Below are positions 11,176 to 12,462 of a stretch of 64,000 nucleotides of DNA, in pieces. The notes under the pieces are model-generated. The model saw only the letters and a list, made by a program, of their open reading frames with translations, made no database searches and was not told the origin of the DNA. Source of the stretch: Escherichia coli (GTDB lineage: Bacteria; Pseudomonadota; Gammaproteobacteria; Enterobacterales; Enterobacteriaceae); assembly GCF_017348835.2 (NCBI RefSeq), contig NZ_CP071375.1; one strand, written 5' to 3'. A program made the position numbers and the translations under genes. Position 1 is the stretch's first letter, and each line of letters begins with the position of its first letter.

Positions 11176-12462
11176 TTACTTCAGATCGGCCTGTACCTGA
11201 CGCAGCGGTTTCGCCCACGGGTTTTTGGCCTGAACATCTGCTGGCAATGTAGATACCGCTTTTTTCGCCTCTTCTTTCGAAGCGTACACGCCAGAAACCA
11301 GGACATACCACGGCTGACCATTACGCGTCGTTTCATAGACAACGTAGTTTTTCAGATTCTCTTTCTTCGCCCAACCGTTCAGGTTGTCGTAGTTAGAGGA
11401 ACTGCTCAGCTGCAGAGTGTAATGGCTGGACGGTGCCGATTTCAACGAACCAACATTACCTGCGGTCTTCCCTCCAGCGGCTGGTGTTGCCGTGGTTTGC
11501 GCCGGGGATGCCGTCTGTACTGGAGCCGTAGTCGCCGTCTCTTTTGGTGCTGGCGTAGAAGTCGCAGCCGGTGCCTTCGTGCTCGCCACAGGAGCAGCTG
11601 GTTCAGTACGCTTCGGCGTCTGTGCTACCGGCTTCGGTTCCGTTTTCACGGTTGCTTGCGGTTTTTTCGGTTCAATCACCGCCTGCTGACGAGCTGGACG
11701 CGTAGTGGCCGGACGTTCAGCAGTTTGCGTTTTCGCCGTGTCACGCGATGCATTGCCATTGCGTACTGGCGCGACAGTTGCTGGTTCAGTCGGCAATGTA
11801 GAATTGACCGCCACATTGTTCAACTGTTGCTGATTTTGTGGCTGGGTCAGCGCATTGTTCAGGTCACCCTGCACTTCAACACGTTGTTGACCATCCGTTG
11901 CCGCCGGGGTTTGCCCTTGAGTCGGCGTAGAAGAGATCGGCGGCAGAGAAACATCCTGCTGAGTATTTTCCGCAGACGTGGTTCCCGGCGCTGGCTGCAC
12001 GCCATTGGCCTGATCGGTCGCATTGCCAGCAAGATCAATACTCTTCTCGCCAGACGCGGTTTGATCGCTGGAAGTGGTCGAGGGGGCTTTTAGCGCAGAA
12101 CCGATACCGATGATCAACAGCAGTAGAACCAGAATGCCGACGCCCATCATCATATACTGACGAGAAGCGGGTTTACTGGCTGCTTTTTTGCGCTTACGCG
12201 GACGACGCTCTACGCGCTCTTCATCCACGGTTTCATCTTCGGATTCGTCAATTTCTTCTTCGATTTCCGGTTCCTCATTGCGCTCTTTTTGCGCACGAGT
12301 CGGACGGCGATCGTCAGTGTCATCAAGTTCAATATCATCAAAATTGATCTGCGGTTCGCCACGTTCAGTACGCTCAGAACGTTCAGAAGATTGACGAGAA
12401 CGACCAGTACGACGATCGCTGGGATCGGGTTTCAGCTCGTCTTCTGGTTTGAATTCATCCAT
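11176..12462 (-). CDS. damX: Cell-division protein DamX (low-complexity periplasmic region, C-terminal SPOR domain)
   Basis: 428-aa ORF with acidic N-terminus, Pro/Thr/Ala/Gln-rich middle and SPOR-like C-terminus. Confidence 0.9.

Follow-up and report, generated by a model that had tools for sequence, protein, structure and literature searches.

The low-complexity tract of Escherichia coli DamX as a probable two-part disordered periplasmic tether accompanied by an antisense shadow open reading frame

We analysed a 64,000-nucleotide stretch of Escherichia coli DNA (contig NZ_CP071375.1 of assembly GCF_017348835.2; hereafter the window) that carries damX on its minus strand (Table 1). The predicted product scores 851 bits with the NCBIfam DamX equivalog NF008153 (cutoff 256), residues 1–428 aligning to profile positions 1–424. 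The order of open reading frames (ORFs) makes damX the third gene of the operon aroK–aroB–damX–dam–rpe–gph–trpS, between aroB and dam, and RefSeq annotation gives the same gene order in the collinear damX regions of six strains. With the SPOR domain described below, the profile score and these neighbours bear out the identity that the initial annotation had given to the gene. It is 100% identical to damX of E. coli PE164, and a damX gene is annotated in 5425 of 5426 complete E. coli genomes. Compared with K-12 DamX (b3388), it is the same 428-residue gene product at the same operon position, with 98.3% nucleotide identity; the proteins differ at only three residues, all in the periplasmic linker, and 21 of the 22 nucleotide differences also lie there, so the linker haplotype of the window is not that of K-12. 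The published architecture, a cytoplasmic region, a transmembrane (TM) helix, an unstructured periplasmic linker and a SPOR domain, is unchanged, and K-12 DamX is known to localize to the septum and to bind denuded peptidoglycan glycans by its SPOR domain. An Rfam scan of the whole window gave no match in or near damX. Promoter and terminator predictions within 11000–12600 occurred at chance level, with a single promoter-like site at 11445–11416 on the minus strand; dam promoters sit within damX according to the literature.

Table 1. Features of the damX locus, with positions in the window and the basis of each assignment.
Feature	Residues	Position	Strand	Basis or remark
damX coding sequence, 428 aa plus stop	1–428	11176..12462	−	ORF call, NCBIfam NF008153
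Cytoplasmic N-terminal region	1–102	12157..12462	−	Charged (E/D/R/K), itself of low complexity
Single TM helix, RPRKRKK just before	103–124	12091..12156	−	Hydrophobicity, AlphaFold
Membrane-proximal linker half, T/Q/A/P/S/N-rich	125–232	11767..12090	−	Predicted disordered
Conserved motif, core LPTxPAT[VL]	221–231	11770..11802	−	Homologue alignment
SPOR-proximal linker half, low-complexity A/T/P/K spacer	233–337	11452..11766	−	Composition, entropy, conservation
Indel hot zone	288–326	11485..11601	−	Allele comparison
SPOR domain, binds septal peptidoglycan	338–428	11179..11451	−	Pfam, PDB, AlphaFold
Antisense 'shadow' ORF, 223 aa		11422..12093	+	ORF call; judged non-coding

The segments on either side of the linker are readily delimited. 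The cytoplasmic region is strongly charged (D/E/K/R making up 50–68% in 40-residue windows), has 60% of its windows below the first percentile of background entropy, and is modelled by AlphaFold at a pLDDT of 43–58. Its coding DNA holds a 9-nt unit repeated three times (12361–12388, found with TRF), and relatives carry indels there at residues 31–35, 47, 60–81 and 72. The hydrophobic window at residues 106–124 coincides with an AlphaFold helix at 101–121 (pLDDT 79–86) and retains 62–76% identity over distant homologues. As this is the only hydrophobic segment and the basic RPRKRKK stretch fits the positive-inside rule, we infer that DamX is bitopic with a cytoplasmic N terminus. The C-terminal domain matches Pfam PF05036 (SPOR; E = 1.9e-14, residues 345–418) and is predicted at a pLDDT of 92–94 with the fold β-α-β-β-α(-α)-β-α. 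The structure 2LFV ('Protein damX') matches only residues 334–428 (E = 1.3e-55), and none of the PDB matches provides a solved structure over the linker. Among homologues and alleles no indel was found in the TM helix or the SPOR domain; all indels fell in the linker or in the charged region on the cytoplasmic side.

Between these domains, the compositionally distinct tract spans residues 125–337 (11452–12090 on the minus strand, about 213 residues). The stretch originally flagged, 11530–12120 or residues 115–311, is mostly linker; it takes in the last ten TM residues and ends 26 residues short of the SPOR domain. Proline, threonine, alanine, glutamine, valine and serine make up 65% of the flagged stretch and 69% of residues 125–337, compared with 36.7% (binomial 1e-21) in the 40 remaining long ORFs of the window. 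The bias thus held on recount; the description 'almost entirely' P, T, A, Q, V and S fits only residues 281–330 or so (85–90%), and neither serine nor valine exceeds its level in those 40 ORFs. Enrichment is in alanine (16.9 versus 9.5%), threonine (16.4 versus 5.1%), proline (12.2 versus 4.4%) and glutamine (10.3 versus 4.9%), which together constitute 56% of the linker, with N, G, K, E, D and R contributing about 27%, leucine 2.8% and isoleucine 1.4%. No F, W, Y, C, M or H occurs in the 240 residues from 107 to 346; in the other 40 ORFs the longest stretch free of these six is 42 residues. Being depleted in order-promoting residues and rich in A, T, P and Q, the linker has the composition of the disordered-linker class. 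The same layout recurs in 80 homologue representatives, in which a TM segment is followed by a biased linker (median P+T+A+Q of 41%; median aromatic/Cys/Met/His of 3.7%) and then by a C-terminal SPOR domain.

An AlphaFold2 model built with a 32-sequence alignment, with low pLDDT serving as a proxy for disorder, gave 33–51 over the linker and DSSP coil throughout residues 122–336. The DamX linker is thus intrinsically disordered by prediction, in agreement with its published description as a 'mostly unstructured periplasmic linker' and as the 'Largest periplasmic linker region' (PMC7642682). The disorder prediction proposed in the initial annotation gave the outcome expected of the known architecture, with which the tract was correctly said to agree. 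A biased, disordered linker in DamX is already known, and this part of our analysis adds nothing to the architecture of the protein.

The linker is not uniform along its length. When entropy was computed in 40-residue windows, with 14,892 background windows as reference (mean 3.73 bits, minimum 3.07), residues 233–337 averaged 2.91 bits and reached a minimum of 2.53, below every background window, and residues 125–232 averaged 3.39 bits, a mild bias only. The SPOR-proximal half is 22% alanine, 19% threonine, 14% proline and 9% lysine; in an alignment of 25 homologues no more than 62% identical it shows 15% identity and 69% column occupancy, with a pLDDT of 33–51. The membrane-proximal half is likewise without predicted secondary structure (pLDDT 38–50) and shows 36% mean identity and 94% occupancy in the same alignment. 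Within it, three islands (residues 171–180, 191–205 and 221–230) retain 47–72% identity in distant homologues, so that poor conservation and frequent indels are true of residues 233–337 and untrue of the islands. Because strongly conserved peptide motifs lie there, the N-proximal half is not featureless.

The most conserved island, with the core LPTxPATV, is 72% identical over residues 221–230, on a par with the TM helix and the SPOR domain, and L223, P224, T225, P227 and A228 vary little or not at all. The pattern LP[TSA]xP[AST] occurs in 47 of 150 representatives clustered at 50% identity, where shuffles that preserve composition predict 1.75, and 79 of the 114 Erwiniaceae-type homologues have it too. 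Among the distant homologues a cluster-member look-up identified Buttiauxella, a second homologue search assigned the DamX homologues with short N termini to the Erwiniaceae, and the documented breadth of the motif covers Enterobacteriaceae and Erwiniaceae. Within E. coli, the motif codons carry many synonymous variants and zero amino-acid changes, which argues for position-specific purifying selection and not for selection on composition alone. Going by sequence, LPTxPATV and the other islands would most likely serve to dock a partner in the periplasm or the membrane. A passive reading, in which the whole linker is an entropic spacer and the islands have no specific binding function, being retained through general effects, for instance on protease resistance, export or polyproline-II stiffness, would fit a motif built of P, T, A and V like the remaining tract, the marginal confidence bump that AlphaFold gives at residues 223–227, and a literature search that returned no mention of a DamX linker motif. 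In a published study, soluble DamX without its TM region also failed to stimulate PBP1B, so that linker and SPOR domain are insufficient for that activity. Set against this are the drop to 14–22% identity in the neighbouring linker segments, the excess of the exact pattern over shuffles and the exclusively synonymous variation of the motif codons, and we consider a wholly passive linker rather unlikely. It is possible, and we propose it tentatively, that LPTxPATV and the two further islands constitute an undescribed functional element, which by analogy with the essential FtsN 'E' peptide may dock DamX onto a divisome or peptidoglycan-synthesis partner. Such a docking peptide would, if real, account for DamX activities beyond what the SPOR domain alone explains.

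Linker length varies widely over evolutionary distance and hardly at all within the species. Across the 80 homologue representatives it ranged from 19 to 433 residues (median 175), the shortest being about 55 once the fragment-like P0154 is set aside, and between genera it spans roughly 55–430 residues. Of 60 complete E. coli genomes sampled evenly, 58 had the identical length and two carried an additional 12 bp, so that no common length polymorphism was found within E. coli in this sample. Nearly all linker indels fall in the spacer at residues 233–337. Rare deletion alleles remove 7–39 residues and cluster at residues 288–326, those of 21–39 residues being found in uncommon alleles of E. coli and E. 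albertii. A 4-residue (12-bp) indel recurs between codons 302 and 303 (11556/11557) in Escherichia and Salmonella: a TPxA insertion is present in E. albertii, E. marmotae and the two E. coli genomes mentioned above, and the 425- and 429-residue Salmonella forms differ at the same site. The longer form is a quasi-tandem ACGCCAGCCGCA/ACGCCAGCACCA pair with a shared 8-nt direct repeat, and indel junctions show microhomologies of 9, 8, 6, 6, 5 and 5 nt compared with 2.7 expected.

These features could be taken as signs of a hypermutable, contingency-type tract in which frequent slippage changes the length from strain to strain and tunes DamX function, and the rare deletions, the recurrent site, the junction microhomologies and the large differences between genera do point that way. 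Tandem or direct repeats were rejected as a basis of the length variation, however, since TRF detected no tandem repeat within 11452–12090, its only array lying in the cytoplasmic part, and a repeat search found no direct-repeat family internal to the linker. The near-fixed length in E. coli also stands against a contingency tract, as does the make-up of the sequence clusters, the 428-residue cluster holding 6081 member sequences and the deletion variants being singletons that may include assembly errors. Moreover, every indel preserves the reading frame, which leaves no room for on/off switching at the damX linker. We regard a contingency function as very improbable. The original remark that such tracts are prone to length variation between strains therefore applies between genera, to rare deletions and to one recurrent 4-residue site, and does not describe E. 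coli, where the length is almost constant and no tandem DNA repeat is present. That near-fixed length argues in turn against a pure spacer for which any length will do.

The DNA of the linker is polymorphic even where its length is not. Four-fold-site diversity is 0.10 in the linker compared with 0.007–0.03 in the flanking 4 kb, and polymorphism-to-divergence counts are 31:20 in the linker and 32:110 in the flanks. Identity to the window over the linker reaches 99% or more in only 1023 of 5425 genomes, compared with 4116–5265 for equal-sized segments of aroB and dam. Among nine E. coli alleles, 50 of 66 variable sites are at third codon positions of damX, and nearly all linker variation is synonymous (piN/piS about 0.09). 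As a separate observation, the linker forms an island of normal synonymous diversity within a 4.7-kb trough of low diversity. A profile of the surrounding 50 kb, for which five more strains were added, places the linker at only the 86th percentile, and we rejected it as an absolute diversity outlier, the flanks being unusually low instead. A raised mutation rate was rejected since the linker shows no excess of fixed four-fold differences to E. albertii and E. marmotae (0.17/0.14 versus 0.18/0.17), and amino-acid composition or codon degeneracy was rejected since the excess holds within alanine, threonine and proline codons separately. Literature searches turned up no relevant work on damX polymorphism or positive selection, nor on synonymous rates and disordered regions in bacteria.

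The contrast with the flanks raises the question of diversifying or balancing selection, in which phages or toxins acting at periplasmic DamX, for example, would keep old alleles and so create the polymorphism peak. The diversity, the polymorphism-to-divergence ratio and the scarcity of near-identical genomes would all accord with it, and T4 gp27 cross-links to DamX (PMC11054660). Against it, the peak is ordinary on the 50-kb scale, almost all of the variation leaves the protein unchanged, and the variants are linked and mosaic, so that a few recombination patches could give the contrast and site-wise tests overstate its significance. We judge such selection improbable. As the separate second part of our tentative proposal, the linker DNA would be an island of divergent alleles that may persist, or re-enter by recombination, in an otherwise homogenised operon.

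The tract is overlain by the antisense ORF listed in Table 1, which exists as first described, begins with ATG and was correctly called a shadow. It had been characterized as Arg/Ser/Cys-rich; arginine indeed dominates (24.7%), and leucine (13.0%) exceeds serine (9.0%), followed by glycine (7.6%) and cysteine (5.8%). The ORF lies in exact codon-for-codon antisense register, so that its stops correspond to TTA, CTA and TCA codons of damX. The damX gene contains no TTA or TCA codon and only two CTA codons (CTA113 and CTA124, both in the TM helix), and the antisense frame is consequently open over 305 codons (11176–12090). As this open run continues through the SPOR-coding part, the low-complexity tract alone is not its cause, and the statement that the tract produces the shadow ORF gives way to an explanation by the absence of TTA and TCA codons across damX. 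Open runs of at least 300 codons in the antisense register accompany 5 of the 41 long ORFs in the window.

The length of the frame, its ATG start and its intact state in seven of nine E. coli alleles examined, the window included, might suggest a real overlapping antisense gene. Its openness follows, however, from the register and the avoidance of TTA, TCA and CTA by damX; its composition (Arg/Leu/Ser/Gly/Cys/Trp) is what reverse-complemented alanine, threonine, proline and glutamine codons encode; and it has no Pfam or NCBIfam match. The frame is interrupted in O104:H4 (near its end), E. albertii, L014 (a relative of 83% identity; eight stops), Salmonella (three) and Citrobacter (two), and L014 and Salmonella also lack its start codon; a 12-bp insertion is present in the 1297KP and GF4-3 alleles. 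Within E. coli, mean pairwise amino-acid differences amount to 17.4 in the shadow frame and 3.8 in the DamX frame, a 4.6-fold faster divergence. We therefore rejected an overlapping gene, the frame being neither preserved in relatives nor under purifying selection of its own, and consider one hardly credible. The shadow ORF is a passive by-product that evolves as non-coding sequence.

Taken together, we hold with a probability of roughly 0.85 that the tract is the disordered periplasmic tether, in two parts, of the bitopic inner-membrane division protein DamX, and that the shadow ORF is a by-product of damX codon usage. In the proposed arrangement the charged N-terminal region would lie in the cytoplasm, the helix at residues 103–124 would cross the membrane, and some 213 residues largely free of hydrophobic, aromatic and cysteine side chains would stretch through the periplasm, so that the C-terminal SPOR domain could extend to septal peptidoglycan and attach to its denuded glycan strands. 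The membrane-proximal half would be disordered with conserved peptides, chiefly LPTxPATV at residues 223–230, that may dock a periplasmic or membrane partner. In the A/T/P/K spacer, composition and approximate length would be selected and sequence would not, and substitutions and microhomology-mediated indels would as a result build up over evolutionary time. We infer the role of the linker as a spacer giving reach, and that of the motifs in docking, from these patterns: as the linker DNA is polymorphic in E. coli and its length is constant, length and motifs appear to be selected and the spacer sequence does not.

The locus serves mainly to illustrate something ordinary, a disordered linker of biased composition opposed by a shadow ORF on the antisense strand. 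Beyond this, the linker is non-uniform, and LPTxPATV, conserved like the SPOR domain, is a concrete target for mutagenesis that may be of modest help in work on SPOR proteins. In E. coli the linker DNA also holds much more polymorphism than the approximately 4 kb on either side, with its length held constant.

TonB and TolA also contain periplasm-spanning low-complexity segments, rich in proline, alanine and charged residues and free of aromatics, whose length varies between genera; these pass on the force of inner-membrane motors and are built with regular X-Pro or helical repeats. The DamX spacer resembles them in being of low complexity, aromatic-free and periplasm-spanning, and differs in that no periodic repeat was found in it; the spacer has no known coupling to a motor. 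Closer in architecture are FtsN and the DamX paralogue DedD, which like DamX are bitopic and in which a disordered tether rich in proline, glutamine and alanine links the TM helix to the SPOR domain, that of DedD being disordered by NMR (PMC7642682). What sets DamX apart from both is that its linker is the longest of the three and that its charged cytoplasmic region is large; the likeness meant here is one of architecture. The disordered linker of FtsN includes the E domain, a short peptide that is conserved and functional, and the conserved LPTxPATV island of DamX parallels it.

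The tract that the initial annotation had placed at 11530-12120 lies within damX as claimed, its identity upheld by an end-to-end match of the 428-aa protein to the NCBIfam DamX equivalog (851 bits against a cutoff of 256) and by a C-terminal SPOR domain. ORFs for dam, rpe, aroB and aroK lie alongside, the K-12 yhfS-malT region is collinear with the window, and the damX DNA is 100% identical to that of E. coli strain PE164. The gene is single-copy in 5425 of 5426 complete E. coli genomes and annotated as damX every time; PDB 2LFV ('Protein damX'), the sole solved structure matched, spans aa 334-428. 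The tract's boundaries required correction: translation of 11530-12120 gives aa 115-311, and the interval therefore takes in the final ten residues of the TM helix (aa 103-124), and it ends 26 residues short of the SPOR domain. AlphaFold2, run on a 32-sequence alignment of DamX, predicted a disordered linker between the TM helix and the SPOR domain, in accord with the published description; the equivalent region of DedD has been shown by NMR to be disordered (PMC7642682). The tract was rightly read as the known DamX linker, an interpretation already in the literature. The cytoplasmic region was predicted with low confidence (pLDDT 43-58); it has been termed 'likely folded' (PMC7642682).

Coordinates of damX features and of other loci in the window
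Feature	Position (nt)	Strand	Residues (aa)	Description
damX ORF	11176-12462	-		428 codons
Cytoplasmic region	12157-12462	-	1-102	
9-nt repeat, three copies	12361-12388			
TM helix (AlphaFold2)			101-121	helix, pLDDT 79-86
Linker, compositional	11452-12090	-	125-337	
Linker (AlphaFold2)			125-336	without secondary structure, pLDDT 33-51
Conserved island			171-180	SLPPISSTP; weaker than aa 221-230
Conserved island			191-205	weaker than aa 221-230
Conserved peptide	11770-11802	-	221-231	core LPTxPAT[VL]
SPOR domain (AlphaFold2)			337-427	folded, pLDDT 92-94
SPOR domain (Pfam)			345-418	C-terminal
Sigma-70-like pair	11445-11416	-		TTGAAA, 18 nt, TACACT
Shadow ORF	11422-12093	+		223 aa
Low-diversity trough	9538-14220			~4.7 kb; rpe, dam, damX, aroB, aroK; pi4 0.007-0.03
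pckA-envZ spacer	29682-29756			
rpnA-bioH insert	39441-39970	+		~690 bp, with toxin-type gene
rtcB	53539-54766	-		
ES036 (CssrF) sRNA	60289-60331	-		43.6 bits
Membrane ORF	60418-61020			200 aa
PBP_like_2-domain ORF	61020-62552			510 aa

On recount the compositional bias was real, but its description as almost entirely P, T, A, Q, V and S was too strong: these residues make up 65% of 11530-12120 and 69% of aa 125-337, against a background of 36.7% (binomial 1e-21) for the window's other 40 long ORFs. Enrichment was limited to Ala (16.9 versus 9.5%), Thr (16.4 versus 5.1%), Pro (12.2 versus 4.4%) and Gln (10.3 versus 4.9%), with Ser and Val at background level and Asn, Gly, Lys, Glu, Asp and Arg together contributing about a quarter of linker residues. 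The clearest signal of bias is depletion: aa 107-346 form 240 consecutive residues without Phe, Trp, Tyr, Cys, Met or His, and the longest such run in the other long ORFs is 42. The cytoplasmic region is likewise of low complexity (50-68% D/E/K/R), and the part of damX coding for it contains a threefold 9-nt repeat.

The linker consists of two parts. Shannon entropy in 40-residue windows averaged 2.91 bits (minimum 2.53) in the SPOR-proximal half (aa 233-337), below all 14,892 background windows (mean 3.73, minimum 3.07 bits), and 3.39 bits in the membrane-proximal half (aa 125-232), where the bias is only mild. Compared with 25 homologues, each at most 62% identical to the query, the membrane-proximal half retained 36% identity at 94% column occupancy, and the SPOR-proximal half 15% identity at 69% occupancy.

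The claim that the tract is prone to length variation between strains is borne out when genera are compared and by rare alleles; within E. coli, length polymorphism from strain to strain is not common. Across 80 representatives with the TM-linker-SPOR architecture, the linker spanned 19-433 residues (about 55-433 without a fragment-like 160-aa homologue), with medians of 175 residues, 41% P+T+A+Q and 3.7% aromatic/Cys/Met/His. In 60 complete E. coli genomes sampled at regular intervals along the similarity ranking, linker length was identical in 58, and two carried an additional 12 bp; 6081 sequences belong to the 428-aa cluster, and deletion alleles (389-421 aa) were singletons. Indels mapped to the linker, chiefly within aa 288-326, or to the charged cytoplasmic part of the protein (aa 31-35, 47 and 60-81); the TM helix and SPOR domain had none among the alleles and relatives compared. 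The +12-bp form, also present in E. albertii and E. marmotae, has its extra 12 bp after codon 302 and makes a quasi-tandem pair, ACGCCAGCCGCA/ACGCCAGCACCA, so that the common 428-aa form resembles a deletion between 8-nt direct repeats; the 425-aa and 429-aa forms of Salmonella differ at the same site. Junction microhomology was 5-9 nt at several larger deletions against 2.7 expected, and tandem-repeat and direct-repeat searches found no tandem DNA repeats in the linker. On an evolutionary timescale the tract accommodates indels, but it is not a fast-switching locus.

The opposite-strand shadow ORF is present as the initial annotation described, but its cause is codon usage rather than the low-complexity tract, as the frame stays open for 305 codons, continuing through the SPOR-coding part. 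It is read exactly antisense to damX, codon for codon; its stops could therefore only be damX TTA, CTA or TCA codons, and damX has no TTA or TCA and two CTA, both within the TM helix. Five of the window's 41 long ORFs have an antisense open run of 300 codons or more, and the Arg/Leu/Ser/Gly/Cys composition is that expected from the reverse complement of Ala, Thr, Pro and Gln codons. We rejected the possibility that it is a gene: it had no family match in Pfam or NCBIfam, stops break it in E. albertii, a more distant Escherichia-like relative, Salmonella and Citrobacter, and within E. coli its translation differs by 17.4 residues pairwise compared to 3.8 for DamX, with 50 of 66 variable sites in nine E. 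coli alleles at damX third codon positions. The shadow ORF is a codon-usage artefact. A sigma-70-like pair directed toward dam lies at the linker/SPOR boundary. Published work locates alternative promoters of dam within the damX ORF, but such pairs were no more frequent in the scan than expected by chance, so this one is not evidence of a promoter.

Window and K-12 damX differ at 22 nucleotides, 21 of them in the linker and 18 of these synonymous. Among eight strains, 25.6% of linker four-fold sites segregate (four-fold-site diversity, pi4, 0.107), against 5.1% (pi4 0.014-0.035) across aroK, aroB, dam, rpe and the remainder of damX. This excess persists within Ala, Thr and Pro codons, and the linker shows no raised level of fixed differences from E. 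albertii and E. marmotae. Identity to the window of at least 99% was found in 1023 of 5425 genomes for the linker, 4440 for the cytoplasmic and TM part, and 4116 and 5265 for equal-sized segments of aroB and dam. Aligning 50 kb from five further strains gave an overall pi4 of 0.067 and placed the linker (0.102) at the 86th percentile, rejecting it as an absolute diversity outlier. The anomaly is instead the low-diversity trough, within which the 640 bp coding for the linker form an island whose diversity is normal or high (pi4 0.10). The trough retains the phylogroup topology with distances about 3-5-fold shorter; linker haplotypes are mosaic and discordant with the flanks, K-12 and strain C3728 differing by 2.66% in the linker versus 0.10% in the trough, which points to short recombination patches. 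Divergent alleles may persist or be re-imported in a region where changes to the protein are tolerated; selection specific to the locus and chance in recombination history are further candidates. Site-wise tests overstate significance because linker variants are linked, and the island is a minor lead, not established.

Elsewhere in the window, an insert between rpnA and bioH carries what is probably a type II toxin-antitoxin pair: an ORF for a 122-aa toxin of PemK/MazF type (Pfam E 3.9e-19) and, overlapping it on the upstream side, a 55-aa ORF. K-12, CFT073, O104:H4 C227-11, A32 and C3728 lack the insert, and in them 28 bp separate the two annotated features. The pckA-envZ spacer shows a presence/absence polymorphism: it is short in the window, K-12 and A32, and holds a RelE/ParE-family toxin gene plus nadS in CFT073, O104:H4 C227-11 and C3728. 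rtcB comprises two overlapping ORFs in different frames (Pfam RtcB profile 1-206 and 207-426), a frameshift in the window strain reflecting either a pseudogene or a sequencing error. ES036 (CssrF), the sole Rfam gathering-level match in the 64 kb, lies between glpD and the next large ORF, directly downstream of the membrane and PBP_like_2-domain ORFs.

Within the linker, aa 221-230 reach 72% identity across the 25 homologues, a conservation equal to that of the TM helix and SPOR domain. LP[TSA]xP[AST] occurs in 47 of 150 representatives of 50%-identity clusters, against 1.75 expected from shuffled sequences, and in 79 of 114 Erwiniaceae-type homologues (Pantoea, Erwinia, Tatumella), mostly as LPTAPAT; LPTxPAT[VL] is conserved across Enterobacteriaceae and Erwiniaceae. 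The motif is easily overlooked because it is built from the same residues as the 'low-complexity' tract, and we found no mention of it in the DamX literature searched. We consider this island a minor lead rather than an established finding. FtsN carries its short E peptide within a disordered linker of its own, and by analogy LPTxPATV may be the DamX counterpart, a putative docking site.
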